IMG/VR virus record: IMGVR_UViG_3300031576_000019
Coordinates: 26,774-90,773 of that record
Length of the DNA stretch: 64,000 bases
Reading direction: 5' to 3' (one strand)
From: a virus
The position numbers were made by a program, and so were the translations under genes. Positions within the stretch are counted from its first letter, which is position 1. Every line of letters begins with the position of its first letter. The notes under the pieces are model-generated. The model saw only the letters and a program-made list of their open reading frames with translations. It was not told where the DNA came from and ran no database searches. This document shows, in pieces, positions 26,560-61,711 of this stretch.

Positions 26560-28032
26560 TCAAGCCAAATTATCAAGAGTAAGTCTAAGCTCACCTTGCA
26601 TGACATAAACAGCCGGTAGAGCCGTTCTTATAATATCAATCGCCTCTCCCAGATCCCCATCAAAAAGACCGGGCGCGCGCAGAATCTCCAGCGCCTCATC
26701 AATATCCATACTCTCAAGGGCCTCGTTGGTAATCAGATTCAAGCCCGCAATTTCAGCCCTGAGCGCCTCGGCTTTGCGCGACTTCTCTTTCACTTGGTCT
26801 TCTAAGACGACGCGCGCACCCTGGAATACCAGCGATTCAATAGACCTGGAAAACCCCGCAATCTCGTTATCCAGCATGGCAAGTTCTCCTTGCAGACGGG
26901 TCAGACCCTTGGCGGTTTCCGGTCCGACGCTAAAAGAGTCGTCGGCATAGTACGCCTCCAATTCTTCGCGCGTTACACTCCTAAACATATCTTCCAGGGC
27001 CTCCACAATTTTGTGCTCATACATTGAATTGGAGACATGAGGAATCTCCATCCCCGAATTCCGGGAGGCTACCCGGTTGAGGTAATGGGCGCACCCATAA
27101 TTAGGAATACTCCGACCCCTAATCCAGCTGACTCCCCCTCGCCGCATCGGGCCACCACATAAGCCACAAAACAAAAAGTCCCGGAAAGGAGAACTCTGCC
27201 ACCGGCCACGCGGGTGTTCACGCCGACGCCGAGCAATCTCCAATTCCACCCTTAGACAAGTCTCGGCATCCCACATCTTGGGATGCCGGCCAGGAGACAG
27301 GACTCCGTTATAGACCGAGAAACCCCTATACCAAGGGCTATTGATAATCCTCGTCACATGGCCGTATTTGAGTTGACGGCTACTTCCAGGCGGGAGCGGC
27401 AAGCGCCGCCATATTTCAATGTAGGACATGCCAGACAATAGATACTCGGCCAGCGTAGTAAACCACATTCGCCAGCCCTCATCAATGACATACCCCACCG
27501 TCTTTCCAGAATCATCCCGGACACTGTTGTAGCCAATCGCGCCGTTCCCGCCATGGTGCATCCCGCGTTTAGCTCGCCCCTCATGGCCCATTCGTATCCT
27601 GTCCCGGATTCGATCCAGTTCCATCTTGTTGACTGCCGCTAAAAGGTAAAATGTCCGCAGGTCAAAATTACCGGAAACCAGGATAACCTGTATGCGTGTC
27701 TGTTCAAGCATATCCCCAAATGGAACGGCGGGCCGCACTCCCCGACACAGCCGATCATCCGTCCTGGCATAGATCAACTCATACTTCTGAGCGTAGCCGT
27801 CTGCAATCAGACGCAGAAACTCCGGTCGATCAGCCCGCTCACCCCCTGGTTCTACCCAGCGCCTCCCCACTCGATAGCGCTTGTTGTCCACATACTGGTC
27901 AATAATTTCTACCCCATCCCTGATCGCACGCTTGCGCGAGTCCTCCAGCTGAACCGGGATGGAGACTTTATCCTCCCCGCCCTGTCCCTCGCTGTCACTT
28001 ATCCTGGCGTAGACAACGCCTCTCTTGCTCAT
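26560..28032 (-). CDS. Large serine recombinase (integrase-type)
   Basis: YARIS catalytic Ser, RPEF, DRLCR, recombinase domain, Zn ribbon (CGLCG...YGC) and coiled coil. Confidence 0.9.
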   Translation of the reverse strand: MSKRGVVYARISDSEGQGGEDKVSIPVQLEDSRKRAIRDGVEIIDQYVDNKRYRVGRRWVEPGGERADRPEFLRLIADGYAQKYELIYARTDDRLCRGVRPAVPFGDMLEQTRIQVILVSGNFDLRTFYLLAAVNKMELDRIRDRIRMGHEGRAKRGMHHGGNGAIGYNSVRDDSGKTVGYVIDEGWRMWFTTLAEYLLSGMSYIEIWRRLPLPPGSSRQLKYGHVTRIINSPWYRGFSVYNGVLSPGRHPKMWDAETCLRVELEIARRRREHPRGRWQSSPFRDFLFCGLCGGPMRRGGVSWIRGRSIPNYGCAHYLNRVASRNSGMEIPHVSNSMYEHKIVEALEDMFRSVTREELEAYYADDSFSVGPETAKGLTRLQGELAMLDNEIAGFSRSIESLVFQGARVVLEDQVKEKSRKAEALRAEIAGLNLITNEALESMDIDEALEILRAPGLFDGDLGEAIDIIRTALPAVYVMQGELRLTLDNLA

Positions 28033-43530: not shown

Positions 43531-44262
43531 CTAATCTTTGGGGAAGTTCAATTTTGCTTTTGAGCCACGTAATTCTTTGGCCATGGCGTCGTAGGCGTGG
43601 GCGGCCTTAACGGGGTCGGTGAAATGGCCCAAGAAGATGTTCTTTCCGTTTTTCTCAATGCCACATCTCCAAGCATTGTTTCTTCCACCCGCCCAAGAGA
43701 CACCTCTGTAGCCACTGGTGTTGTTGGAAGGAATTGTGGAGTTCCTCTTCTGAGGAGCCTCGGAAACTTGGTCGGGGAAATTGAGGACGGCCCATTGACC
43801 ATGTAGTTCGCGGGCGGCTATATCATAAGCACGAGCGGCTTCTTCGGGCGTATTAAACACACCGAGATGATGGTACTTGTGGTTGGCGGTAATGCTTGCC
43901 TGCCACGCCTTGTTATTCAGATATACGCCTTTGTAACCGCTAATCGTATGCTGTCGTCCTCGTCTGTTTTGCATATTCTGGCATTGGGTTGCTAGACGGA
44001 GATTGTCACGGCGGGTATCAAGGGTATTTCTGTTTTTGTGGTCAACCTTCTCAGAACTCAGAAGCCCTCGATCCAACATACGTTCCATAACAAGACGGTG
44101 CAAAGATTTCTTTCTCCTCTTGCCCATCTCGTATCTTTGTGTAATCGCGTAAATGTGCAGTCCATTTGATGTGTATGGACACCATACAAGTTCGCATAAA
44201 TCCGCATCCTCATCATCTATCAAGAAGGTAAACGGAGTATTTTGAGTGAGTATCTCAACCAT
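43531..44262 (-). CDS. HNH endonuclease with two AP2 domains (homing-endonuclease type)
   Basis: VDHKNRNTLD.R..NLR; two SGY(K/R)GV...HLG.F...AA.AYD..A.EL.G..A.LNFP-type units. Confidence 0.9.
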   Translation of the reverse strand: MVEILTQNTPFTFLIDDEDADLCELVWCPYTSNGLHIYAITQRYEMGKRRKKSLHRLVMERMLDRGLLSSEKVDHKNRNTLDTRRDNLRLATQCQNMQNRRGRQHTISGYKGVYLNNKAWQASITANHKYHHLGVFNTPEEAARAYDIAARELHGQWAVLNFPDQVSEAPQKRNSTIPSNNTSGYRGVSWAGGRNNAWRCGIEKNGKNIFLGHFTDPVKAAHAYDAMAKELRGSKAKLNFPKD

Positions 44263-44268
44263 CTCAGC

Positions 44269-44316
44269 CTCTGTTTGCTATCTGTTTCATTAGGAGTAAA
44301 ATATGAACATGGAAAC
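44269..44316. repeat. 48-bp perfect direct repeat, copy 1 (copy 2 at 53417-53464)
   Basis: ctctgtttgctatctgtttcattaggagtaaaatatgaacatggaaac is identical at both loci. Confidence 0.95.
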
Positions 44317-44413
44317 AATCATGCCATACCTATGTATGGGCTTTGTTCTTCTAATTTCGCTCGTCGCTATTGTGGGCGCAATGGCCTTGCTTGGAAAAAT
44401 TATGCACGGCTAG
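44303..44413 (+). CDS. 36-aa single-TM peptide (type I toxin-like), copy 1
   Basis: AGGAG RBS; MNMETIMPYLCMGFVLLISLVAIVGAMALLGKIMHG; paralogue at 53451. Confidence 0.7.
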   Translation: MNMETIMPYLCMGFVLLISLVAIVGAMALLGKIMHG

Positions 44414-44651
44414 AACACTCATCATTCTCACCCAGGATGGCGCATAACAGCGCCATCCCCTCCCATAACTTCGGGAAGTCTCGGTCAGCAAGAGGTACGC
44501 CCTTCTTCGGAAACGTCTGGCGGGCCAAGTCGAAATGGCGGCGAGCCGTCTGCAACTCGCTTATCTCCCGCGATGAGTTCCACTCTCTGAAGTGCTGGAG
44601 TCCTGTGTCGCCCAGGGCAAAAGAAGCCTCGGCAGTAAAAGTAGTCTTCAT
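44400..44651 (-). CDS. Hypothetical 83-aa protein
   Basis: AGGAG RBS and its own consensus promoter. Confidence 0.6.
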   Translation of the reverse strand: MKTTFTAEASFALGDTGLQHFREWNSSREISELQTARRHFDLARQTFPKKGVPLADRDFPKLWEGMALLCAILGENDECSSRA

Positions 44652-44687
44652 GTTTGTCTCCTGTATGGGTTGGCCGATAATCTGCCC

Positions 44688-44763
44688 ATAGTATCACACA
44701 CATCATTGTGTGTCAAGACACACAATGAGTTTCATTGACAAAACCTGTATGTTAGTGCATAAT
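44688..44763. promoter_or_regulatory. Back-to-back sigma70 promoters with a palindromic operator
   Basis: - strand: TTGACA(44716-44711)-17-TACTAT(44693-44688). + strand: TTGACA(44735-44740)-17-CATAAT(44758-44763). Palindrome tcattgtgtgtc-aa-gacacacaatga at 44703-44728. Confidence 0.8.
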
Positions 44764-44770
44764 GACACAT

Positions 44771-44965
44771 ATGCCTACCCGAGTGAGAATTCCATTTTCG
44801 ACAACCCTTGACCCCGACATCTTGGATGCGGCACGAGCAAAGTCAGAGGAAACTGGCCTGCCACTATCTACGGTGGTTGAGAGATTTCTGGCTCACTGGG
44901 TCAATGGGGGTTCTGTCCCCCCCAAGCAGGCGGTAGAGAGAGGACATCCACCAAGATCAAAATAA
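44771..44965 (+). CDS. Ribbon-helix-helix DNA-binding protein, probably leaderless
   Basis: FSTTLDPDIL..A...SEETGLPLSTVVERFL; ATG 7 nt after the -10 box. Confidence 0.7.
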   Translation: MPTRVRIPFSTTLDPDILDAARAKSEETGLPLSTVVERFLAHWVNGGSVPPKQAVERGHPPRSK

Positions 44966-45000: not shown

Positions 45001-48000
45001 TTAGAGCGCGCTCTGACGACGAAGCGTCTTAGCTTGCCGCCGCTCAATCCTGGCCGCAATCTGATCACCGTCCAGAATAACATAAACATCGCCATATCCG
45101 CCATTTCCCTCCAACTTGGAGGAACCAGGGCGGGGAAGGTCAGGGGGTTGACTATTCAGGGGGTAAATCGAAACATATTCATCCTCATACTCGCCTACTC
45201 GAAGCAGTTGGTTTTTGGTTGCCAAGAACTGACGGCCCGAAGCAACTGGAATAGCCTCTTCGCCGCCACTATTTGAACTACCACCCGTAGCGGGCGGGAC
45301 ATAGTTCGGTGGGTGAGCCACATTCGCGGCATCTTCCAGACTGGCATTACCCAGCCACTGGAACATATTCCACAGCCAGTCACCGACGCCATTGTAGAAC
45401 TTGGCCGAGGTGTCCATCATATAGCGCAGGCCAGCTTCGTTCTCGCCCTGTTTTCGGCCAAGTTCTGTGGCGGCCGCTTGGGCATCTTTCATTAGTTTGG
45501 CATAGTGTAGACCGGAACCAATACCCGCCAGCTGGTTCTCCTGCTGGAGCTTCCAATGCGTGCGCTCCAGGTTTCGCTGTTCATCCTCAATCGCTTCGCT
45601 CTCCGCCAGCCAGCCCCGCTGTGCCGCAATCCGGTCAGACTCTAACGCCTGATTTTCATAGAAGTTTCCCTTTTCCATGTCCATGCGTTGCATCGAGAGC
45701 TTGAACATTTCCTCTGACCGGTTCTGTTCAACCGCTAGACGCTCCACCTGGGTCTTGAATTGTTCCGCCGCCCGGACGGTTTCAGTCTTGTAGCGGTCAT
45801 CCTCATCCTTCCACAACTTGCGCTGTCGTGACTCAACTTTGTTTTGCTGTGTCTCCTCGGCGTTGTGGTCAAGGGTGGTGCGCTTCTTTTGCCTTTCAAG
45901 TTGACGCCGATCCCGGCCCGTCGAGAAACGGATGTCCTCATCAATATCCTCCATCGCCCAACCAAAGTGCTGTTGGTTTTGACCGCGCTGGAAGGCAAAG
46001 TCTTGTGATTGCCAGTTGCGTGATTGGGCGCTTTGCATCCGACCAAAGGAGAAATCCTCTAACTGATAGCCCCGTTGAAGGTTGACCTGCTGGCCCCGGA
46101 AGGAGAAATCTTCTTGTTGCCAACCCTGTTGTGTCACAGCCTGGGCACGGTTGAAGTCCCAGCCAGCCTGGAATTGTCGGCCACGCATCTCTAGTCCGCG
46201 CTGAGAGAAGGCTAGATTACCTTGCGCCTGAGTCCGTTGGAGTTGGGTTGACTCATCCTGTAAGGCCCACATTCCACGGCCTTCCTGAATGGCCGAGGCG
46301 GTGCCGCCATTGATGGACCAGGGTAAAGCCTCGCCAGGTTTATAAACTGCACTCCCAGCATAAGCACCCAGTCCCTGTCCTGTCGTAAAGGCCATCCCAA
46401 TCTTTACGCCTCGAGCCGAGATACCAGACGAGGCCGCTTGTGACTGGTATGACAAGTCACTCATATAATCCTGCAGCCCCCACATACCACCATAGGTTTG
46501 GCCAACCGCATTTGGCTTGCCCTGACCCACTAGGGCCGCCTGAACCGGAGCAGAGAAATTCTTGAATGACCCCGCGATCAGCGGACTGACCTGCCCACCA
46601 GCACTCAAAATGCTATTGGTGAATAGGCTCATACCTGCCGAGCCGGTCCGCCCACCCGTCTGGTTGGTCACCCATGAGCCTGGCCCACCCATTTGAGCGC
46701 CCGCCATACTCATCGCATTGGCATTGCCTGACAATACACCCTGGGCGATGAGAGCTTCTTGGGGAGTGGCATTCCTCATCGCAACGGCTAGGTCGGCGGC
46801 CCCCTGCTCACCCATAAACTGTCCTAAGCGACCCCGAACATTCTCGCCCAGACTGCGCTGATAACTCGAAGCACCAGACATGGCTAGAGCGTAGGACTTG
46901 GCTCCCGCACCACCCAGGTCAAGCGCCGAAGCCTGAAATAGCTGGCCAAAGCGGCCGGCCCGCTGGGGGTCCTCGGCTAAGAGATTGGAAAAGTTATCTA
47001 CATTCGCAAGCCCCTGTCCTTCCAGCATTGAACGGATAGATTCAAAGCGGCCTCGTTGCACCATTCCTTGGCGACCCAAACCATAGGCGGTCGCATCACC
47101 CTCTGCTGTTCCAAGATCGGCCTGCTTGGTAAATTCAGTTATTCCGCTCCACTTGAATCCGCCTGCTAGTCCCTCCTCTAATTGCCCAAATATACTTTCT
47201 ACCAAACCATGAATAAACTTATCTCGACCAGCCAATTCGCCGGACCGAATTGCTCGGTCAAAGTTCACCTCCTGACCCTCCATCGCCAATAAATTCTCCA
47301 TCCCCAAGCCGCGCGAAGCCGCCCTCATTTGTTCGGGTGTGTATTTTTCAAGAGCGGCATAGGATTTCTGATAGGCCGTATCCATGCTGCCGCCAAGTCC
47401 GGCCTGAAGTTGTTCTGCGAACTGTTCGGGGTCGACGCCTGCCTGCATAGCCCGGAGAATTTTTTCCTCAGTCCCCTTCCAAAACTCTACTGGGGATTCT
47501 TCGCCTCCCTTGCCAGGGCCACGCCAAGCATCTGGGCCCTGCATATAATTCTGGGCTCGTGCCAGACGGGTAGAGATGCCCACGGCTACATCTTCGTCCA
47601 CACCCAAGCGAGCCATCGTGGATTCGTATCCACCAACGCCCGTTACCGCCCGTTGACGCATATAACGCGCACGATCCTCATACGACATTCCCGCCAAATC
47701 GAATTGCGACATCCCCGCCGCCACCTGCGTCTCCTCACCCACCATTTGTTGCGCGCCCGCCGATTGGCTAAACAACCACTGCCCAACTACTCCGCCCCCC
47801 AGTGCATCTCCCAAGCTCAACTGTCCAATACCCTTGTCGCCACCGTAGGTGTTATAGAGCATCTCGTTGAAGTCTTTGGGACTCTTTACATAGTGCGAGG
47901 CAGCACTCATTGCGCCAATACTGCTCGTAACTCCTCCCGCGATAACTCCAGCTGGAATAGCAAGTGGGCCCAGTATTGGCGCGGTCAACATGCCCGTCGC

Positions 48001-51000
48001 AATACCCATCCCAACGCCAGGGCCAAGAACTCCACCAATAACCGAGGCCATATTGTTTCCGCCCATCCCAGATACACCACTGACTACATCGCCCCATGTG
48101 TTGGCCATTGCGTACTGAACCCCCGCTTGCGCTTGTGCAAACTGACCAGCATAGCGTGATGTGGCCAGTCCCGTTCCCCCAAAACCAAGACCGGCCAGTG
48201 CCTGTCCAATGCGTGTGTTAGATTGAGACTGGCCAGACAATGCCTCTAGTGCGGGAGCTGTGACCTGCTGCATGGTCCACGGGAGGTACTGCGCCGACAT
48301 TAGCGCCTGACTCGTGCGATTAAGTTGGGCTAGTGGAGAACGGTCGGACATCGCTTCCGCTTGTGACACCGCCTCACCACTCAAAATACCCGCATCGCTC
48401 AGGCGCTTGGCAAATCTCTCGAGACTAGAGGCATCCGAGCGAGTGCCAGTGGTGGCACCCAAAAACAATTGACGACGCTCCATTTCCATCTCACGGTACT
48501 TCTCAGCCACTTGGGGTGAGACAGCCCCCAGTCGCATCTCAATTGCTTTAGCCGCAGAAGGATAGGCGTCTTTGCTAAAATCCAAATTCCCCCCTGCGAC
48601 ATCGGCCATGACCCCGACCCCGACACCATGCTTTTCGAGAAATTTTCCTTGCTTCTCTGTTAAATCCACAAGCCGGTCCTGATATTTGAGCTGTCGGGCC
48701 TGCACATAATTTAGCCGTTCTCCGGTTTCGCGCATGTTTCTAAAAGTAGCCGTCAGTTCTGTGGATTCCTTTATCATCCCGCCCATGTCTGCCTTCGCAA
48801 AGGCTTCTCCCGCTTGAGCCAGAGTCATCTTGGCTGTCTTGGCCCCACCCGGTCCGCCGCCTGCTTTGCCAGCCCGATAATCGGCAAAGCTCTTTTTGAC
48901 GCTCTCTTCCGTATCGCCCAGCGCCTCCGGTCCGTGTTCCAAGAACCACGCCTTTTCCCCACTATCGTCGGATAATTTCCACGGATCGATGGAAGAAACG
49001 ATATTTTTTAGCGAGCCCATTACACTCGGCTCGGACAGACGACCCGGTGCCTGGAGGGCTCCCCGAATTTTATCGAATGCCTTAAGGGGAACGCTATCGC
49101 GGGCAAACGACCCCTCGGCCCCCCTCATGCCCATCAAGTCCATCGTTGAGAAGTCACCTGTTTCGGTCAGACTCTTAAGGGCCTGAATCATCCGGGTCGT
49201 TTGTTGTGGACCCAGATTCATTTCGTTTAGAGCGTTTTGTTCGGCCTGCTCCTTCATAGCGTATTTAGAATACGATGCCGTTGCCTGAGCCACCTTTGGA
49301 ATAAAATTAGGGTCAGTCGGGTCGTAGAGAGCCGGATTAATAAACGACTGGCCCTGACGGAAACGCTCTGCCCCACCACCCACCTTCTTCTCGGCCTCCG
49401 ACACCATTCGTCTAGCCTCATCCGGTGACATCTTCTCCAGGTTGCGAAGATGCTTGGCCTCGGTCGGCATAATTTTGGCTAAGAGTAAATTGTCTGGATT
49501 TCCCAGTGAGGCATTGGATAATTTGGGAATGGCAAAGTTCAACTTCTTGGCCCAAGTTGCCAGCGTATTGTGGCCGAACATTGTCTCGCCCTTGACGGGA
49601 TAATCTCCAGTCGCGCGAGGATTGATCGCCATTCCGGTCAACCTCCCAAATCGTTGAAGGAAGTCCTCCGCCTGTGGCGCTACAATCATATTGGCCAAGG
49701 TGTTGGGCAGGTCAATCCTGTTCTCGCCCGGTTCAGGCTTGCCGCTATAAAAGCGCACCGTTTCATGGAGGCGCATCCCAAACTCGGCCCAATCAGCGTC
49801 CTTGTCTCCTAAGGGCGCTTTCTCGATCTTCCAGCGCGCGGCCGCCATGGCTTTGATAGCCGTTGGTAAAGTTCCCAACTGTCCCGCCTCGCCCCATGGA
49901 TCACGGCCCAGGACTATTCCCATTGAATTGGCAATCCAACCCGCCTTCTTCGAGGCATCCATCCCCTGCGCCTTGGCGAGTTGTGTCCGTAAGAACGCTT
50001 GTTTCTGTGGGTCATTAATAACCAGTGGAACAAGAGCTGAGGCGTCAGAAAACTCGGGAGCCGTCATCAGCGCTGTCAGCGCATCGGTCATACCCGCATT
50101 TCGGCCACCACCAGCAGCCTTGGTCATAATGCCCGAAACCTTCTCGCCCGGCTTGGGCGCTACGCCCGCTGTAGCCGGTTGCATCCGGTCACGCACAGCC
50201 ACGAGTTTCTCAAAGGCCCCCGAAAAGGCTTCGCTATCCAGCATCTTTTGATAAGCCGGAAGTACAACCTGATTGAACTGGTCTTGTCCGCCCGATAGAA
50301 CAGACAGCACGCGCCCAAAGTTGAACTCTTTGCCCATACCCGCCTTGTACTCCAGCGTCTCGGCCAAAGCCTTCTGAACCGCCTCGGGAGTTGTATGTCC
50401 AAAGGTTCCCAGTTTGTCAACCATCCCCAGCATAGAGGTCTTCAATCTCTCAAAGTCATATTTGCCGGTACTTTTATCAAATCCCCACTCCCGCGCATCT
50501 TTGGCCCACTTGTTGATTTCTTGGGTGCCGAGACCAGAGAACTTCTCGTCCATGAGTTTCTGGCGATTTACAACCTCGTCCGAACTCATCCCTGGCCGAA
50601 TGCCGTTGGCCCGGACCACAAATGCGCGGCCAGTCCGCTGAACACTCAATGCGCCAATACCCGAAATGCCAGACGCATCCGGGTCAAAGTCGCCGATGTT
50701 GATAGACTGAACCTCTTTGTTCAACAAAATCCCGTCGGGGAGATTTGAGGGTGTCACTCGCAAATTGAGCAGGTTGGCATCCGAAATGTTGGGGTTGCGC
50801 CAGGTGTAAGCCCCCACGTTGTTTTCGCGCAGGTAACTCTTAAGCGCCAGAAGTTCCGGGGGTGTCCGAACTTTGAACATTCGCATGAGTTGGGCATCTC
50901 CCAACCGCATCTCGTTAATTGGAACATCCTGAACGCCCGGAAGCGCAGATACCGGACCACCGGTGGCGTTCCTGGGATAGAAGGATGTCAGCGCCTTGTG

Positions 51001-53364
51001 TGTACCCTTTGAGCCATACATTTCTGCCACAGAAGCGCGATGCTTCTGTACCAGTTCAATGGGCACTTCCTGACCCGTCGCCTTGAGCATCAACATCTCC
51101 AAGGCGCTGGTAGCATAAGTGGAACTGTCATTTTCCAGGCCAACAAAACCATCGTCATTGGCCAAGTCTTTTCCCATCCCGCCTCCCAAGGCATAGCGCA
51201 GGTTGCGAACAGATGGCAAGGGGAGAGATTGTTTCACACCGTTCTCAGTATAGGTCATCATAAGTGGCGACCGCGCCTGATGGCGCATGTCAGCCTTGCT
51301 TGCCCCGTTCATCTCTCCCAGAAAGCCCATGGCCGATTCAAGACCATCCAGGAATTCATGTGGCGTAGGAGTTCCCGATCCAGCGTGTCCCTGTAAGGCA
51401 CTGGACAGAGCGGCCTCTGGTAGTTGGGAGGCGTCTAAATCAATCCCGCGCCGAGGCGTGATATTGGGAGCACCGGACATGACTGCCCCAGCGTTGATGA
51501 TCTCGCCGTAAATATCCTGCTTGCCTATACTCTGGCGACTCAGTTGAGAAAATGAACGCGGGTCAGTCTTTGCCATACGCATGGCAACTTCCATTGACAC
51601 CTTTCCGGTTGACCATGGCCAAGCACCAGAACGTGAAAGGGTCTTGGCAAATGGCATTGACATGACCTGTTGACCAGCCGCATTAGTCTTAGCTGAGTTA
51701 CTAATGATGTAGCGTGCCGCCTGTTGAATAGCGGGCAAGTTGGATTCCGTCCATTGGGGAGCTCCGGTCGAGGGATCAATGAGCGCGGCTAGGGCCGGAT
51801 GGTCCCACCCCTCGCGTGCGCCAAAGCCCTCAATCATTGACTGAACACCTGCCAGTGGATTCTTGAAAAAGTCATTGGGTGAAACAGCAAAACCTTGGAA
51901 GCCCCGAGGAGCAAATCCATAGTTTTGTTCGTGGTGTGCCACAAAGACCTTGCTCCCCTCGTGGAACAAGCCATAGTTCCCCTCACCCACTCGTTGTCGG
52001 ACAGCGGTTTCGAGGAAGTCGCGCATCCCACCTTCAATCCGCCGAGTGGCGCCCACCTGTGTCTCATCCCAACTACCCGTACTTCGCCCAAAATGTGGAA
52101 CAGGTGTATCTCGGCCCCCGACTGTGCCCCGCCAGAAACGCTCATTCTTGAATTGGCCCGCCATCCCGTGTGTGCGCCACGCCGTCTGCCGTTCAAGCGA
52201 AACCTGCTGGCCAACCGAAACACCCATACCCGCGGGCATGGATGGATCAAACAGAATGTTGAAGACCTGCGCTTGTCGACCAGTAACGGGTGAACCATCC
52301 GGCGCATATTCCACAATTCGCGTATTGATTTCAGGAACGCTCAGCCTCCCGCCCGTCATACCTCGACCCACATCCCGGTAGCCCGAGACTTGCATGTGTT
52401 TCATCATCTTCATCTCATCACCGGGCTTCTTGTAATTCAGATAACTCACTCGCCCCCTTGAATCCCGCGATGACATCATCCCCTGATAAGTCATTTGCCC
52501 GGTATCAAATCCGTAGACATCATTTGGGTTCCGTGTCCCAAGTGGCGAGCCATCGGAAGATGCGAACTGACCACTCAGATCAGGATTGACCAAGTTTCGC
52601 TTATTGAAGATGCGGTCATTAGGATTTTGGGTTTCGGGGAAGAATTGGGTTGAAGCGATACGCCCCAGTCGGTAGTTACTTTGTGGGGTAAAGGGGTCAA
52701 CATATTGGCCCTCACGCTGTCCAGCCACAAATCGTGGGCCACTCTCTGTCTGACCTGGAGTAGACATCGCCTTGTAGTGTGCGCCCACATCTCTTAATAC
52801 CAGCCGACGCAGAGTATCGTACTGTGTCTCGCCAGGCTCGGATACGATTGATCTTCCGCCTAAATGTAGCCCGCCCGTCGAATCGCGCCAGAGACGCATA
52901 TCCATTCGGTTCTGGCCAGCGATGTTGACCGTTGCATACGCATCCCCGCCCATGGATTTTTGAGGTGGCAAACGCAGGGAAACATCTGCGCTTGGAAACT
53001 TTGCGCGTAAGTCGGCTTCAAGTTTTCGCACCAAGTCGTTGGTGCTGGTCGGCTTGTAACGGTCACTTGTAGACGGGAAAGCATCAAAGCCTGTATCAGC
53101 ATCATCAGGCTCAAGCATCCCCTCATCTTGAATGGGCTGGAAACGAAAAGGGACTTGTGGAATGCGAGATTGCTGAACTCGTGGTGATTGCTCGTACCCC
53201 CCATAATGCGCGTCCGTAGACAACCGCGAGTTAAGGCTTTGGTAGACGGCATCGTAGAGAGTTGGCGGTACCTCACCACGCTCAAAAAGTTCGGCCAGCT
53301 CAGAAAATGCGGTTGTAGGGTTTTGGGCGAGATGCGCTGTCAGACGCTCGGTTGTCCAAGACAT
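45001..53364 (-). CDS. Tape-measure protein with a putative N-terminal two-barrel RNA polymerase domain
   Basis: Follows the tail chaperones. Has Gly-rich hydrophobic segments, 18-aa (W/Y)Q..DF repeats and a C-terminal VGEYEDEYVSIYPL. WRNP...NIGDFDPD at 50802-50677. Confidence 0.8.
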   Translation of the reverse strand: MSWTTERLTAHLAQNPTTAFSELAELFERGEVPPTLYDAVYQSLNSRLSTDAHYGGYEQSPRVQQSRIPQVPFRFQPIQDEGMLEPDDADTGFDAFPSTSDRYKPTSTNDLVRKLEADLRAKFPSADVSLRLPPQKSMGGDAYATVNIAGQNRMDMRLWRDSTGGLHLGGRSIVSEPGETQYDTLRRLVLRDVGAHYKAMSTPGQTESGPRFVAGQREGQYVDPFTPQSNYRLGRIASTQFFPETQNPNDRIFNKRNLVNPDLSGQFASSDGSPLGTRNPNDVYGFDTGQMTYQGMMSSRDSRGRVSYLNYKKPGDEMKMMKHMQVSGYRDVGRGMTGGRLSVPEINTRIVEYAPDGSPVTGRQAQVFNILFDPSMPAGMGVSVGQQVSLERQTAWRTHGMAGQFKNERFWRGTVGGRDTPVPHFGRSTGSWDETQVGATRRIEGGMRDFLETAVRQRVGEGNYGLFHEGSKVFVAHHEQNYGFAPRGFQGFAVSPNDFFKNPLAGVQSMIEGFGAREGWDHPALAALIDPSTGAPQWTESNLPAIQQAARYIISNSAKTNAAGQQVMSMPFAKTLSRSGAWPWSTGKVSMEVAMRMAKTDPRSFSQLSRQSIGKQDIYGEIINAGAVMSGAPNITPRRGIDLDASQLPEAALSSALQGHAGSGTPTPHEFLDGLESAMGFLGEMNGASKADMRHQARSPLMMTYTENGVKQSLPLPSVRNLRYALGGGMGKDLANDDGFVGLENDSSTYATSALEMLMLKATGQEVPIELVQKHRASVAEMYGSKGTHKALTSFYPRNATGGPVSALPGVQDVPINEMRLGDAQLMRMFKVRTPPELLALKSYLRENNVGAYTWRNPNISDANLLNLRVTPSNLPDGILLNKEVQSINIGDFDPDASGISGIGALSVQRTGRAFVVRANGIRPGMSSDEVVNRQKLMDEKFSGLGTQEINKWAKDAREWGFDKSTGKYDFERLKTSMLGMVDKLGTFGHTTPEAVQKALAETLEYKAGMGKEFNFGRVLSVLSGGQDQFNQVVLPAYQKMLDSEAFSGAFEKLVAVRDRMQPATAGVAPKPGEKVSGIMTKAAGGGRNAGMTDALTALMTAPEFSDASALVPLVINDPQKQAFLRTQLAKAQGMDASKKAGWIANSMGIVLGRDPWGEAGQLGTLPTAIKAMAAARWKIEKAPLGDKDADWAEFGMRLHETVRFYSGKPEPGENRIDLPNTLANMIVAPQAEDFLQRFGRLTGMAINPRATGDYPVKGETMFGHNTLATWAKKLNFAIPKLSNASLGNPDNLLLAKIMPTEAKHLRNLEKMSPDEARRMVSEAEKKVGGGAERFRQGQSFINPALYDPTDPNFIPKVAQATASYSKYAMKEQAEQNALNEMNLGPQQTTRMIQALKSLTETGDFSTMDLMGMRGAEGSFARDSVPLKAFDKIRGALQAPGRLSEPSVMGSLKNIVSSIDPWKLSDDSGEKAWFLEHGPEALGDTEESVKKSFADYRAGKAGGGPGGAKTAKMTLAQAGEAFAKADMGGMIKESTELTATFRNMRETGERLNYVQARQLKYQDRLVDLTEKQGKFLEKHGVGVGVMADVAGGNLDFSKDAYPSAAKAIEMRLGAVSPQVAEKYREMEMERRQLFLGATTGTRSDASSLERFAKRLSDAGILSGEAVSQAEAMSDRSPLAQLNRTSQALMSAQYLPWTMQQVTAPALEALSGQSQSNTRIGQALAGLGFGGTGLATSRYAGQFAQAQAGVQYAMANTWGDVVSGVSGMGGNNMASVIGGVLGPGVGMGIATGMLTAPILGPLAIPAGVIAGGVTSSIGAMSAASHYVKSPKDFNEMLYNTYGGDKGIGQLSLGDALGGGVVGQWLFSQSAGAQQMVGEETQVAAGMSQFDLAGMSYEDRARYMRQRAVTGVGGYESTMARLGVDEDVAVGISTRLARAQNYMQGPDAWRGPGKGGEESPVEFWKGTEEKILRAMQAGVDPEQFAEQLQAGLGGSMDTAYQKSYAALEKYTPEQMRAASRGLGMENLLAMEGQEVNFDRAIRSGELAGRDKFIHGLVESIFGQLEEGLAGGFKWSGITEFTKQADLGTAEGDATAYGLGRQGMVQRGRFESIRSMLEGQGLANVDNFSNLLAEDPQRAGRFGQLFQASALDLGGAGAKSYALAMSGASSYQRSLGENVRGRLGQFMGEQGAADLAVAMRNATPQEALIAQGVLSGNANAMSMAGAQMGGPGSWVTNQTGGRTGSAGMSLFTNSILSAGGQVSPLIAGSFKNFSAPVQAALVGQGKPNAVGQTYGGMWGLQDYMSDLSYQSQAASSGISARGVKIGMAFTTGQGLGAYAGSAVYKPGEALPWSINGGTASAIQEGRGMWALQDESTQLQRTQAQGNLAFSQRGLEMRGRQFQAGWDFNRAQAVTQQGWQQEDFSFRGQQVNLQRGYQLEDFSFGRMQSAQSRNWQSQDFAFQRGQNQQHFGWAMEDIDEDIRFSTGRDRRQLERQKKRTTLDHNAEETQQNKVESRQRKLWKDEDDRYKTETVRAAEQFKTQVERLAVEQNRSEEMFKLSMQRMDMEKGNFYENQALESDRIAAQRGWLAESEAIEDEQRNLERTHWKLQQENQLAGIGSGLHYAKLMKDAQAAATELGRKQGENEAGLRYMMDTSAKFYNGVGDWLWNMFQWLGNASLEDAANVAHPPNYVPPATGGSSNSGGEEAIPVASGRQFLATKNQLLRVGEYEDEYVSIYPLNSQPPDLPRPGSSKLEGNGGYGDVYVILDGDQIAARIERRQAKTLRRQSAL

Positions 53365-53416
53365 ACAGATACAACCTCTCAAAAGAGGGGGATGGGGTGA
53401 ACATATCCTTTGTAAT

Positions 53417-53464
53417 CTCTGTTTGCTATCTGTTTCATTAGGAGTAAAATATGAACATGGAAAC
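53417..53464. repeat. 48-bp perfect direct repeat, copy 2
   Basis: Identical to 44269-44316. Confidence 0.95.
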
Positions 53465-53576
53465 TACGTTGCCCGAAATGATTGCCATCGCAATATGTTT
53501 CGGGTTTGTGTGGGTGATCGTGATGGGAATCCTGGCTATCCTGATGGCCCTTGTCGGAAAGGTCATCAATGGCTAG
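53451..53576 (+). CDS. 41-aa single-TM peptide (type I toxin-like), copy 2
   Basis: MNMETTLPEMIAIAICFGFVWVIVMGILAILMALVGKVING; same RBS as copy 1. Confidence 0.7.
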   Translation: MNMETTLPEMIAIAICFGFVWVIVMGILAILMALVGKVING

Positions 53577-53725
53577 AACTCTCGTTACGCTTACCAAAGA
53601 TTTGGCACAACAGCGCCATTCTCCTCCAACTTGGAGGAGATGAGAGGTTGCTATTCTTTTGAGGGCCAATCTAATCTTCGGGGAAATTCGCCAAAATGCT
53701 TCTTGGCACGCTTGGAAACAATCTC

Positions 53726-53753
53726 AAACAGGGGTTATTCACCCCTGTTTATT
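53726..53753 (+). terminator. Hairpin, probable terminator of the antisense peptide transcript
   Basis: aaacagggg-ttattca-cccctgttt followed by att. Confidence 0.55.
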
Positions 53754-54007
53754 CAATTGGCGTTGTGCTTTGGAAAACTCCATTACATTCATAAATGCAA
53801 TCAAGCATACCATTTGCATATAGAACTGGTCATTTAGCCCGCCACTCTCGGGTAGCGTGTGAAATTTCTCAACCTGTTCAGCGAGCGCCCACAGGGACGG
53901 GAAGGGGATTTTAGGGAGAGGGCCAACATTCTCTTGGAAGCGGCCAAGTTCAGCGGTGTATCGAAGCACCTCGTCCTGAATATGCTCGGTAATCTCCCCG
54001 ATTATTT
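53739..54007 (-). CDS. Tail assembly chaperone extension (gpT-like, -1 frame)
   Basis: Lies in the -1 frame relative to 54002-54430 and has no good start of its own; LPESGGLNDQ motif. Confidence 0.6.
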
Positions 54008-54430
54008 TCCACCGTCTGGCCCCCACTGAAGGTTGACTTCCACCACCTTCTCGTGGATTTCGTTGGCAACTTCAGGAGGAAGCAGGCCCCAAGCTTTGGC
54101 AAACGCCAATGAGTTCATCGCCAGACGCTTGGTGTTGTTGGAGTTGGTGGCAAACTTGAACAGCGGTTCACCATCTGGGCCTTCAATGTTGCAATCCGCA
54201 ATGGTCAGCTCGACTTCGGTGCGCCGAACCTCCTCCATTGAGACTTTCTGTTTCAATTCAAACTGGTCATTGCCCTCCGTCCACACCCGTGAGGCTTCGG
54301 CGAAGAGTTCACCGCGCTTTTCGTGTTGTGCTTGGCGGGCCTGACGAATAGTGACAAAGGCTTCACCAGTGGGGTCAGCCTTTATTAGTTTGAGGACTTT
54401 CTCGGTGGGAAGGTCAATCTTGAGTGCCAT
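54002..54430 (-). CDS. Tail assembly chaperone (gpG-like)
   Basis: Between the tail tube and tape-measure genes; AGGAG RBS. Confidence 0.7.
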   Translation of the reverse strand: MALKIDLPTEKVLKLIKADPTGEAFVTIRQARQAQHEKRGELFAEASRVWTEGNDQFELKQKVSMEEVRRTEVELTIADCNIEGPDGEPLFKFATNSNNTKRLAMNSLAFAKAWGLLPPEVANEIHEKVVEVNLQWGPDGGK

Positions 54431-54503: not shown

Positions 54504-55847
54504 CTAGTAAGCAGCGTACTCATTCACCCAGGTCAGGCTGGCATAGTCACCAGTGGCAGGCAGAACCGCTTGACCCTGCAGTTGGAGCGATAAGAAACCA
54601 CCGCCTTCTAGTTGAGGTGAGCTTTGCGGAGTCCAAGTGACGGCCGAGGCCAGCATCTGGAGTGAATACGGAATGGTGCCCGCAGTCGTCGGGACATTCT
54701 TGGGAGCCAGAAGTTTTACGTCCAGGTCCGTCTCAAACGGCGCAGGGTCCCAGACCGTGCCAGAACCCATCATCAACTTCTTGTACAGGGCCTTGTCATT
54801 CCACTTAAGCGTGGCTTGTAGTGTCAGTGAGCGTGACAACACCGCAAAATCATCGGGAAAGGGTGACCCGATAATCATTTCTTGTTGCGGGCTAGTGGTG
54901 TTATTGGCGAATGTCCAAGTCAGGTTGAGAATGGGCAAAGCACTAGCTGAGTAGTTCGGCAGTTTAATGTAACCATTGGCGACACACGAGAGCGGCACGC
55001 TCTTGTAGTCTTCGAGTCCCCCCAGCCACGTCCAGGAAGTAAGCGTGGCACCTTCCTCCCAAACAGGTTCACGGCCCGTCACATCTACACGGGCCGAGAT
55101 AATGCCGTTCTGAGGAGCGTTGATCCGCAGGCCGTTCAACCGACAGTCTTTCCCAATCTCACCAAGGCCATTTGTGGCATCATTGGGTGGCAACAGCTTG
55201 CGAACAGAAATCCAAGGGATGTCGTCGGTCAGGGTGTTGAACTTGGCGACATGACTGTTGCTTTGGTAGAAACCAGTCGTAAAACTGCCTGAGCCAGTTG
55301 CGGCGGAGGTCACGTTGATACCGGTGACGGTCTTGTACTCTTTGACGGAGAGTTTCACGCCACCGGCCACCGTCAGCGTAAAACCCGCCTCGGTGATAAC
55401 CGCATCCGAATCGTCGGTGCCCGAGATGGTAAATGTCACCGTTCCGGTGAAGCCAGTAGGGGTAAACAGAATACGTCGCGCGCTGGGCGGTACAGTGAAG
55501 CCAGTCGTTGTATTCGCCACCACGACCGCATCAATGGCGGCATGGATTCCCGCCGCGCTGATAGCGCCCGGTGTAGTCACCACCTGACCCATAGTGGCTT
55601 TGAACAACCAGCCAAGATCGCCCTGCAGGCGCGGTTGGATAGTGGCTCCGCCTGCGACAAACGCGCCACCCTTATATTGGCCGGTCGGAATAATTGCTCC
55701 GCCAACCTCCAAGGGAAAATTCTTCATATCCTGCACTGGGCCAAAGTCGATTTGGGATGCCATGTGCCGATACCAGGAAGTGGCGAGGGTGCCTTTGGCG
55801 GATTGCATTCCAAAGCCCCACATGCCAGATTGAGCTGTTTGAGTCAT
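54504..55847 (-). CDS. Major tail tube protein
   Basis: Position, beta-rich composition and strong AAGGAG RBS. Confidence 0.7.
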   Translation of the reverse strand: MTQTAQSGMWGFGMQSAKGTLATSWYRHMASQIDFGPVQDMKNFPLEVGGAIIPTGQYKGGAFVAGGATIQPRLQGDLGWLFKATMGQVVTTPGAISAAGIHAAIDAVVVANTTTGFTVPPSARRILFTPTGFTGTVTFTISGTDDSDAVITEAGFTLTVAGGVKLSVKEYKTVTGINVTSAATGSGSFTTGFYQSNSHVAKFNTLTDDIPWISVRKLLPPNDATNGLGEIGKDCRLNGLRINAPQNGIISARVDVTGREPVWEEGATLTSWTWLGGLEDYKSVPLSCVANGYIKLPNYSASALPILNLTWTFANNTTSPQQEMIIGSPFPDDFAVLSRSLTLQATLKWNDKALYKKLMMGSGTVWDPAPFETDLDVKLLAPKNVPTTAGTIPYSLQMLASAVTWTPQSSPQLEGGGFLSLQLQGQAVLPATGDYASLTWVNEYAAY

Positions 55848-56465: not shown

Positions 56466-57134
56466 CTAGCCCTCCCAACCCGAGCGGTCCTGAGGAGAAT
56501 ACTCGCTCATCTTGCTGTCATAGCGTTTGAAGCAGTAGCCGGAAAACTCCAACAGCGGGTTGTCGGTAGGCTTACCAAGGTCAGACCTGATCTTGTATTG
56601 GCCCAGCACCGAGGCTTGATAGGCCGGCTTGGCCGCGAGCAAATGGAGCATGTACCACTTGAGCGGCTCCTCCATCCAGCGATCCACCGCCAGCACATCC
56701 TCCTCCCGCTCAACGCGACTCCAGTAACCCCAATAGCGGATGTCCACTGTGTAGGTTGCCGGAATCTTGGACGGGAAGTTGAGTTGGGAAGTTGGCCAGC
56801 GATAGTATGGGTACTGACCGGACACGGTAGTGGTCGGCAGACTTTCGCCAGGCCCCAAGACCACCTTTACGGCTCCAACGATACTGATTGTATCGTTGAT
56901 GGTGATTGGGCCAAGGTCCACCACATCATCGGGAAGTTGAAGTATGGTGGCCTCGGTCGTTAGGGTCGTTGAAAAGACCTTTTCTTGGGCAGTGTGGGCC
57001 GTAATGTTAATCAGAGCGTCATTGATGGCATCCAGCAAATCGTCATCACTAAAGGAAACCTTAGTGAGATCGGTCCGGATGTTGTCATCCAACACCCGGA
57101 GCACGCGATTACGCAGGTTCAGCCAGCTAATCAT
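56466..57134 (-). CDS. Head-tail adaptor protein
   Basis: LRNRVLRVLDD...FSDDDLLDAINDAL pattern; follows the capsid gene. Confidence 0.65.
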   Translation of the reverse strand: MISWLNLRNRVLRVLDDNIRTDLTKVSFSDDDLLDAINDALINITAHTAQEKVFSTTLTTEATILQLPDDVVDLGPITINDTISIVGAVKVVLGPGESLPTTTVSGQYPYYRWPTSQLNFPSKIPATYTVDIRYWGYWSRVEREEDVLAVDRWMEEPLKWYMLHLLAAKPAYQASVLGQYKIRSDLGKPTDNPLLEFSGYCFKRYDSKMSEYSPQDRSGWEG

Positions 57135-60124: not shown

Positions 60125-61711
60125 TTATTCTCGTGCCTCAGCGTTGGGTGGATGACCACCCTTAAGCTTTATCTCATCGGGAGTGGCCATAATAGGCTGG
60201 GGTTTACTGGCCGCCTCCAAGTTGGAGGCGGCCTCGGCCTGTTCCTTGATGCGCTTTAGTTCGGCTTGAATATCTGGCACAGTTCCTAATCGCTCCAGCA
60301 TCATCTCGAGTGAGATGCCTTTTTCTTGTAGCAATCTCACCAGTTCATCCACTAATTGTTGGCGGTCCACCGGCACCATGGGCGACCAGATCTGACGCTT
60401 ACGGAGGCCCAGATGGGCTTGAGTGATGCCTGCTCGACCGCGCAAGGCCAGGATTTTCAGCGCCATCTCTGCCCGTGCGCTGCGCGCCTCAGACCAGTTG
60501 ACGCGCTCACTCTGAACATGCGCCAGAAGCGGCCACATACGCGAGTAAAGGGTCTGCCCGCTCCGCTGTGAGCCTTCTTCCAAGCCATAAGCAATCTCCG
60601 GCGTCATCAGCGTAATGCGGATGGATTGCAAAAGATGATTGGTAAAGACCTGTGAACCTTCTGGTAATTTGGGCGAATCCAGCCGCTTGATATCCGGTTC
60701 GGGGTCACTGCTAGTTGTGGCTCGGCCAGCATCAATGTAGGGCTGACCATTCTCAAAGGTCTTCATCCGAGGCGTGTTCTTGATGTTTTTGGCCCAGATG
60801 AGGCTATGCACGCCAAATGAAATGGCATCTCCTACATCTGCCTCGCGCGCGTTCAGTTCTTTGATTTGCCCAATCGCTGATGGAACCAGTGAGTTGCCCC
60901 AGAAGTTCGCCGTGCGCTCATGCGGGTTATAGAGCATTGGACAGAAGCCCCAGTCATGGGTGCCCTTGATGGGCTTGCCCTCGGCATCTTTAGCGTCCTG
61001 CCCATCCACCCTTACCCAATACTCATCACGCGACCACCATTCCTCATAGTTCACAGTGTCATCGGTCACCTGAACACCGTAGCCATCGGCTTGCGCCTTG
61101 GTAATCGGCATCTTGATCCAGGCTTCGGTCAGGTCCCAGTAATTCTTCCCCTGCCAGCGTGCATGAAAGTAGCGCGGGTCAAAATACTCGTAGCGGATGC
61201 CAGTCGGGAGAAGTGGATTGCTGGGTTCCCAGCCCACCTTTAGCACGACTCCACCTAATGCTTGAATAGACACGCCCATGTCAATGTCAGCTGCACGGGT
61301 GTGATTCTCGTACTCAATCTGCTCCAGAACGAGCTCGGCTTGACGGGCCAGTTTCCGACCCGCATCATCAGCCTCACCCGCCTCGTTGAACCTGGGCTCA
61401 ACGATGGTCCTAACCAGCGGGCCACTCGTGTCCGGTACCTCACCCCACAAGGCGTAGGCGTGTAAGCGTGCCGCCAGAGCGGTCGGATTCATCTGGAGCG
61501 GGTATTTGAGTGGAAAAGTCCCATCTTTCAATGGGCGAGTCTTGTCTTCTTCTTTCAAGGCCTCGCCCGTAAACCAGCGCCACCACTCATTTATCTCGGT
61601 CTGGCGTGCTTGCCATTCTTGTAATTCGGCGTCACTAAGTCCCCCTGGTCCATCATCACGGCCCAGAAGTTTGCTCAGGAAAATTTTTAGATTGGCTTCA
61701 GCAGGATTCAT
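60125..61711 (-). CDS. Portal protein (SPP1 gp6-like)
   Basis: 528 aa; HDWGFCP, FWGNSL, TPEIAYG...SGQTL and acidic helical C-terminus. Confidence 0.8.
   Translation of the reverse strand: MNPAEANLKIFLSKLLGRDDGPGGLSDAELQEWQARQTEINEWWRWFTGEALKEEDKTRPLKDGTFPLKYPLQMNPTALAARLHAYALWGEVPDTSGPLVRTIVEPRFNEAGEADDAGRKLARQAELVLEQIEYENHTRAADIDMGVSIQALGGVVLKVGWEPSNPLLPTGIRYEYFDPRYFHARWQGKNYWDLTEAWIKMPITKAQADGYGVQVTDDTVNYEEWWSRDEYWVRVDGQDAKDAEGKPIKGTHDWGFCPMLYNPHERTANFWGNSLVPSAIGQIKELNAREADVGDAISFGVHSLIWAKNIKNTPRMKTFENGQPYIDAGRATTSSDPEPDIKRLDSPKLPEGSQVFTNHLLQSIRITLMTPEIAYGLEEGSQRSGQTLYSRMWPLLAHVQSERVNWSEARSARAEMALKILALRGRAGITQAHLGLRKRQIWSPMVPVDRQQLVDELVRLLQEKGISLEMMLERLGTVPDIQAELKRIKEQAEAASNLEAASKPQPIMATPDEIKLKGGHPPNAEARE

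Follow-up and report, generated by a model that had tools for sequence, protein, structure and literature searches.

A tape-measure protein with a probable two-barrel RNA polymerase module in an apparently temperate, uncultivated phage

Results

A polymerase signature in a giant tail gene

We analysed a 64,000-nucleotide stretch of viral DNA (the window; bases 26774-90773 of the 90,773-bp IMG/VR virus record IMGVR_UViG_3300031576_000019, which carries a 127-bp terminal repeat and is rated complete), in which a giant minus-strand open-reading frame (ORF), apparently the gene of the tail tape-measure protein, carries in its N-terminal half the RxP...DxDxD signature of two-barrel RNA polymerases (RNAPs). 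The signature and its fusion to the tape-measure gene are conserved in homologues, and the segment around the signature is, by profile comparison, homologous to the catalytic barrel of bacterial beta'. From the sequence, and by analogy with gp96 of phage P23-45, whose N-terminus is an active, virion-borne RNAP (PMC10770324), the first ~1300 residues probably form a single-chain two-barrel (beta/beta') RNA polymerase with an intact Mg-binding active site that is delivered with the virion.

The giant ORF translates without a stop across 45001-53382, giving 2793 codons from a TTG at 53382, from which residues are numbered here (numbering from the ATG is lower by 6). Translation probably starts at the ATG at 53364, which has a GAGAGG ribosome-binding site in front of it, and the 2787-amino acid (aa) product beginning there is identical to the database protein P0002. 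The elements on which the argument turns are as follows.

45001-53364, minus strand: giant gene of the proposed tape-measure/RNAP fusion, 2787 aa from the ATG, stop codon at 45001-45003
49483-53085, minus strand: N-terminal module, ~aa 100-1300, alignable across all five homologue clusters and holding all RNAP-type motifs
50668-50961, minus strand: beta'-type catalytic barrel (DPBB-A), aa 808-905, GGPV..VPINEMRLGDAQLMRMF ... WRNPN ... GDFDPD
50791-50799, minus strand: RxP element R862-N-P864, aligned with beta' R425-A-P427
50677-50691, minus strand: metal-binding DxDxD motif, D898-F-D900-P-D902

An earlier note, made by reading the sequence alone, had proposed a tape-fused two-barrel RNAP catalytic module in this gene. 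The strings it quoted (YTWRNPNI, EVQSINIGDFDPDASGI, PRNATGGPVSALPG..VPINEMRLG and FHEGSKV) are all found in the translation, and its placement of the arginine at 50799-50797 and of DFDPD at 50691-50677, 36 aa apart, is exact. W-R862-N-P864 is followed by 33 residues and then by DFDPD, so that R862 and D898 lie 36 positions apart, against 35 between R425 and D460 of Escherichia coli beta', and the arrangement R862-N-P864...D898-F-D-P-D902 satisfies the filter [RK]xPx{20,100}DxDxD that the authors of the P23-45 study used for two-barrel RNAPs (PMC10770324 Suppl. Data 4).

Homologues of the N-terminal module are few and deeply diverged. Word-indexed searches returned the protein itself and relatives of its C-terminal part only, and no locus of the close family turned up when IMG/VR, JGI metagenomes and GTDB genomes were scanned. 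An exhaustive HMMER (phmmer) search with aa 301-1500 against 1.84 billion cluster representatives gave just five further clusters (P0003-P0007), each of one or two sequences from 20-91 kb contigs, which share 27-31% identity with the query and are all single ORFs of 2719-3586 aa; since every homologue is a single ORF of this size, the fusion is real. Around 32 of the ~1200 columns in the N-terminal alignments are invariant, among them R862, P864, D898, D900 and D902. Conservation of the arginine and the three aspartates in homologous tape measures had been set beforehand as one of two tests of the proposal, and these residues, together with the proline of RxP, are invariant even in the distant relative P0008. 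Invariant as well are K478, K507, R584/G586, G1017/N1021/R1024 and the G808-G809 pair, the last in the region of the upstream PRNATGGPVSALPG..VPINEMRLG segment that the note had pointed to as possible first barrel strands.

The earlier emphasis on an unusual proline at the fourth motif position calls for a correction. The codons of DFDPD are GAC TTT GAC CCG GAT, with the proline encoded by CCG as described. The six close members read DFDPD, DFDVD (twice), DFDAD (twice) and DLDPD, so the fourth position is P, V or A and never Gly; because it varies, proline is not a character of the family. Nor is it peculiar to it: the non-Gly motifs DDDPD and DFDID are already listed for RNAPs of crAss-like phages (Suppl. 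Data 4, PMC10770324).

The catalytic segment aligns with bacterial beta'

Compared with a beta' profile, single sequences reach a P of only ~0.03-0.3, the validated gp96 included, and the profile of the whole family is therefore essential. Over aa 780-960, the family profile matched the beta' profile in HHalign with Prob 77% and P 2e-5 across 97 columns; the target comprised 63 sequences and, like the 64-sequence beta profile used further on, was built from rpoB-rpoC loci. R862/P864 fall on R425/P427 and D898/900/902 on D460/462/464, with WRNPN over NRAPT and GDFDPD over ADFDGD, so that HHalign reproduces the residue pairing which the earlier note had proposed. With the whole 1200-residue family profile as query the top match to beta' lies in the same place (P 2.4e-4), as it does against E. 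coli beta' alone (P 7e-4). In a column-shuffle control (n=100, scored anew with match columns set at 50% gaps), shuffled profiles scored 16.3 +/- 2.3 (maximum 23.9) against 40.8 for the real one, and none of the 100 attained even 60% of the real score. Against PDB sequences, the best non-lectin matches of the family profile were to RNAP gamma (the beta' N-terminal half) at the same region, at non-significant values (E 0.7-1.6). We conclude from the profile match that the segment at aa 808-905 is homologous to the beta' catalytic barrel.

The signature extends to a more distant giant protein. The family profile over aa 755-1125 matched P0008 (3475 aa) in HHalign with Prob 94.7% and P 6e-8 over 356 columns; P0008 retains ERNP...GGDVDAD, also shares the C-terminal part, and is encoded on an IMG/VR provirus (G001) with the same order of portal, adaptor, tube, small ORFs and giant gene. 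Two further proteins, P0010 (3200 aa) and P0011 (2838 aa), have DADGD and DLDGD, respectively, near residue 1000 and share the C-terminal part, with the N-terminal blocks of the family matched only weakly by profile; these may be additional tape-fused polymerase families and are treated here as leads.

Several invariant residues outside the catalytic barrel are candidates for other polymerase elements, as read by eye against E. coli beta and the structure-based alignment that supplements PMC10770324.

51949-51960, minus strand: E475-G-S-K478, candidate Lys motif of a beta-type barrel, compare GNKG of beta and GLKG of gp96; G476 and K478 invariant
51862-51864, minus strand: K507, invariant, 29 aa after K478, possible counterpart of beta R1106 (NPLGVPSRMN)
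51619-51636, minus strand: S-R584-S-G586-A-W, invariant Arg/Gly block with consensus SRSGAYSW, resembling ARSTGPYS of beta or the duplex-binding helix RRENIYR of gp96
50293-50388, minus strand: long helix at aa 999-1030 with invariant G1017, N1021 and R1024, candidate bridge helix, compare AGQLTTSFLGL of gp96

K478, K507 and R584 lie upstream of the catalytic motif, where a beta-type barrel is expected; by motif, EG.K (K478) may stand for the GNKG/GLKG strand and N..IK (K507) for NPLGVPSR. The helix at aa 999-1030 was predicted, at low confidence, in both AlphaFold runs described below.

Tape-measure features and the structural module

The giant ORF is assigned as the tail tape-measure protein without a family model, because of its place in the gene order, its Gly/Ala segment and DFxF repeats, and the similarity of its C-terminal half to that of giant, tape-measure-like proteins in the same position (P0008, P0010 and P0011). 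It sits between the genes at the tube and chaperone positions and those of large carbohydrate-binding-domain proteins, as expected of a tape measure. A tblastn search with the C-terminal 1094 aa gave no match in 50,697 phage records. The features of the C-terminal half and the surrounding genes are:

47917-48015, minus strand: Gly/Ala-rich hydrophobic, membrane-like segment, aa 1790-1822, typical of tape-measure proteins
45943-46200, minus strand: Gln-rich tandem (R/Q)xQxxDFxF repeats, aa ~2395-2480, in the presumed length-determining C-terminal half
60125-61711, minus strand: SPP1-type portal gene
56466-57134, minus strand: SU10-type adaptor gene
54504-55847, minus strand: tail tube protein gene (Pfam Phage_tube_2, E 1.7e-8), upstream of the giant gene
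53379-54430, minus strand: three small ORFs (142, 95 and 96 aa) in the tail-assembly chaperone position between the tube gene and the giant gene
43531-44262, minus strand: HNH endonuclease that bears two AP2 DNA-binding domains, encoded immediately downstream of the giant gene
26560-28032, minus strand: large serine recombinase, integrase candidate (Pfam Resolvase and Zn_ribbon_recom)

The 142-aa and 95-aa ORFs (53739-54430, minus strand) overlap in a -1 arrangement comparable to the G/GT pairs of tail chaperones; no canonical slippery heptamer XXXYYYZ was found in the ORFs at this position. The HNH-AP2 gene has the appearance of a homing endonuclease gene that inserted itself into the tail module. 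Further downstream of the giant gene, the minus strand encodes two proteins of 1403 aa and 1250 aa with carbohydrate-binding domains, and the same structural module includes a GH25 lysin gene. Small plus-strand ORFs at 44242-44965 and ~53400-53637 lie antisense to, or flank, the tape-measure gene. Genes for a DnaD-like initiator, a DnaB-like helicase, RadC and methyltransferases lie on the plus-strand arm; in the early region upstream of the window, a 212-aa ORF (genome 13562-14200, plus strand) has a match to Pfam RVT_3, a 'reverse transcriptase-like' domain of RNase H-like type.

Operators, host-type promoters and other repeated DNA motifs

Three motifs recur through the genome far above expectation.

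Window 8844, 14808, 16470, 22976, 30859 and 58558, plus five sites upstream of the window: GTGAA-N6-TTCAC, putative operator
Genome 12972, 15825, 15896, 18310, 18739, 20349 and 22434 (before the window) and window 4354, 9849 and 18251, all plus strand: TTGCTTCGCA motif
Window 2049, 4334, 8337, 14186, 15440, 18078, 20335, 28044, 34637, 44980, 45110, 53625, 59392, 60216 and 63375, plus 10 copies upstream of the window: 15-bp palindrome

The 11 copies of GTGAA-N6-TTCAC (0.075 expected in the genome) are mostly intergenic, and several precede GGTATAAT-like extended -10 elements by 8-9 bp; the pattern resembles that of a single operator which governs host-type promoters genome-wide. No other ORF of at least 60 aa with an RNAP-like DxDxD was found in the genome. 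As the operator copies adjoin extended -10 elements and a second RNAP-like ORF is missing, most transcription is probably carried out by the host RNA polymerase under a phage repressor. The serine recombinase, the operator-linked host-type promoters and the classification of the distant relative as a provirus together support a temperate lifestyle, and the phage is apparently temperate, as the earlier note had supposed.

The second motif, (AG)TTGCTTCGCA(GA), is found ten times in the rightward arm, without exception on the plus strand (~0.35 expected per strand); many copies lie 10-45 nucleotides upstream of start codons, and the complement of the motif, the template strand, holds a stable GCGAAGC mini-hairpin. 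It may be a phage-specific promoter or RNA signal; as a promoter motif shared with the distant relative it was rejected, there being no enrichment in G001. The palindrome CC-TCCAA[G/C]TTGGA-GG is present in 25 copies in the 90.8-kb genome (~0.04 expected), approximately evenly spaced, in intergenic and coding DNA, on both strands and in different frames, some with extended stems and a T-run; one copy lies within the 3' end of the tape-measure gene and another just past its stop.

Discussion

An injected polymerase and its alternatives

We consider a virion-delivered polymerase the probable function of the N-terminal module; by analogy with known systems we infer that it has a second barrel and is catalytically active, that it is present in the virion and injected, and that it has target promoters. 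On this reading the polymerase would enter the particle as a component of the tape measure, as in gp96, would leave the tail together with it at infection, and would become anchored at the envelope channel which the tape measure forms. There it could transcribe the few first-entering genes before, or independently of, the host RNA polymerase, and this transcription might help to pull the DNA in; the remaining genome would then be transcribed by the host RNA polymerase from sigma-A-type promoters under phage repressor control.

A number of results weigh against this. Searches of Pfam, PHROG, NCBIfam and PDB sequences with the whole protein matched no part of it, the tape-measure part included. 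For the second barrel, HHalign comparisons of aa 440-640 and 455-620 with the beta profile, the gp96 family and YonO were not significant; FHEGSKV, with its invariant K478, is a candidate source of a second-barrel lysine. AlphaFold2 models of aa 401-1300 (from an alignment of 6 rows) and aa 690-1130 (from one of 7 rows) had a mean predicted local distance difference test score of 47.6 and 50.5, respectively. With these low-confidence models, Foldseek against the PDB gave nothing at E <= 0.001 (a few RNAP large subunits among the rows at E > 1 are not counted as support), and VIA-align matched no RNAP significantly, its output being confined to helical bundles at Z < 6 over the helical part; an ESM Atlas feature search returned no usable match. 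None of the close members retains the Gly of motif position 4. With 11 operator-linked host-type promoters and a recombinase in its genome, the phage looks like a temperate one already served by the host RNAP, and such a phage has no obvious need of a virion RNAP; its genome contains no partner non-virion RNAP. How a domain of ~1300 aa would pass through the tail tube finds no explanation here.

Some of these observations would suit a module that descends from an RNAP and no longer polymerises, serving instead as a plug, as a DNA/RNA-binding anchor at the entry pore or as an assembly domain. The fourth motif position that is never Gly in the six close members, the second-barrel lysines that could not be confidently placed, the phage's own operator-controlled host-type promoters and the lack of a candidate promoter motif in common with G001 would all fit. 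Relics, however, usually lose residues such as the Asp triad, the Arg and the Pro, which are invariant here at 27-31% identity and in P0008, and non-Gly fourth positions (DFDID, DDDPD) stand among the listed RNAP motifs (PMC10770324). The option of an inactive relic, which the earlier note had kept, is therefore unlikely.

Ranked behind it, and improbable in our view, is an active two-barrel polymerase with another job, such as making replication primers, copying RNA in the manner of QDE-1, or acting only as a motor for DNA entry. Two-barrel enzymes do include QDE-1, which is both RNA- and DNA-dependent, and PolD (PMC10770324), and most operons are covered by host-type promoters. The genome encodes a DnaD-like initiator and a DnaB-like helicase, with no DNA polymerase or primase family matched among the larger ORFs scanned; as that scan did not cover all ORFs, the missing primase is weak evidence. 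Against such a role, it is a transcriptase, beta', that the module matches best by profile, an RxP typical of RNAPs included, and transcription of pre-early genes is the task of the one tape-fused homologue by architecture that has been characterised (PMC10770324). That the motif arose by chance in a fast-evolving tape measure whose N-terminal region is unrelated to polymerases is very improbable: a rough estimate of ~0.15 [RK]xP...DxDxD arrangements expected in a protein of such length, the lack of any database family match and the uninformative structure models leave room for it, but the motif is invariant in all homologues whilst a second DxDxD (DIDED at 2479) is not conserved, the beta' match has the P value and shuffle control given above, and the residues pair exactly as predicted in advance, so that conservation together with the profile match places the observation above chance.

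If the module is indeed an injected polymerase, it could express a few genes in a temperate phage before the decision between lysis and lysogeny, or drive DNA entry. It would also provide a second system in which to study the carriage and ejection of a large enzyme through a tail, the coupling of transcription to genome entry, and the reason why a phage served by the host RNA polymerase should pack a polymerase of its own into its particle. More tentatively, we suggest as a possibility that RNAP-tape fusions recur, perhaps by independent evolution, among siphovirus-like phages whose tape measures are giant, temperate phages included; that a wider superfamily takes in P0008 and perhaps P0010 and P0011; that the barrel of the family is closer to beta' than to gp96; and that the injected polymerase works from a phage-specific signal, for which TTGCTTCGCA is one candidate.

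Relation to known polymerases

The bacterial beta' barrel (E. coli ~345-470) gives the best profile match: the RxP and the Asp triad pair with a spacing of 35-36 residues, and upstream of them GGPV..VP.NE..L....MF resembles VGP..(C)GLP..MA.ELF. It differs in that the module here is a single chain fused to a presumed virion protein, has Pro, Val or Ala in place of Gly at position 4, shows no detected similarity to beta, and lacks detectable matches to the other beta'/beta Pfam domains (PF04997 had no match anywhere in the 90.8-kb genome). The catalytic barrel appears to match cellular beta' better than gp96, in a comparison that is uneven, with 63 sequences against 3.

YonO of SPbeta and gp66 of phi14:2, a crAss-like phage, are, like the product here, single polypeptides with RxP...DxDxD, and differ in having no fusion to tape-measure proteins. 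The phi14:2 DFDID enzyme is active, and gp66, compared by description only, is carried in the virion within a very large protein. HHalign found no match to YonO, for which a single sequence was the target, and single sequences have low power in this comparison.

A tape-fused virion RNAP has so far been known from one small group, the hyperthermophilic Thermus phages, and a full-text literature search for further cases gave only the P23-45 paper (PMC10770324). There gp96 is present at full length in virions, transcribes the pre-early genes and is proposed to act at the tape-measure pore during DNA entry, and the RNAP content varies among some of its relatives (PMC10770324). The likenesses to gp96 are in layout and in the motif itself: the RNAP module forms the N-terminal part of a giant tape-measure ORF that follows the tail tube gene, the motif sits at similar depth (DFDGD at 779 in gp96, DFDPD at 898 here), the local sequence follows FTFRNP...N.E....DFD.D, and a membrane-like segment lies further downstream in both. 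HHalign against gp96, alone or as a three-sequence profile including TSP4, gave FTFRNP...VDFDGD as its top match (59 columns, P ~2e-3), and the similarity is limited to those columns around the motif; tblastn and HMMER gave no match between the two proteins in either direction. In the 50,697-record phage collection the polymerase part of gp96 matched Thermus phages only, and the giant protein matched nothing. Further differences are length (5002 aa in gp96, 2787 aa here), the residue at position 4 (Gly in gp96, non-Gly here), a metallopeptidase domain that was not found here with Pfam, a gp64-like companion non-virion RNAP that was not found in the 90.8-kb genome, and the setting, here an uncultivated IMG/VR genome that looks temperate.

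Membership in the gp96 family is rejected, as sequence homology, companion polymerase and metallopeptidase domain all fail; because the layout is nevertheless that of gp96, we read the module as a new family of a known architecture. It would be the second family of tape-fused virion RNAP after that of P23-45, with no relationship to it detected outside the active site, and would add to the tree of two-barrel polymerases a branch that is very divergent and in which the fourth motif residue varies. Such a family would show the architecture to be more general than the Thermus phages, occurring here in a 91-kb, temperate-looking phage without a second phage polymerase.

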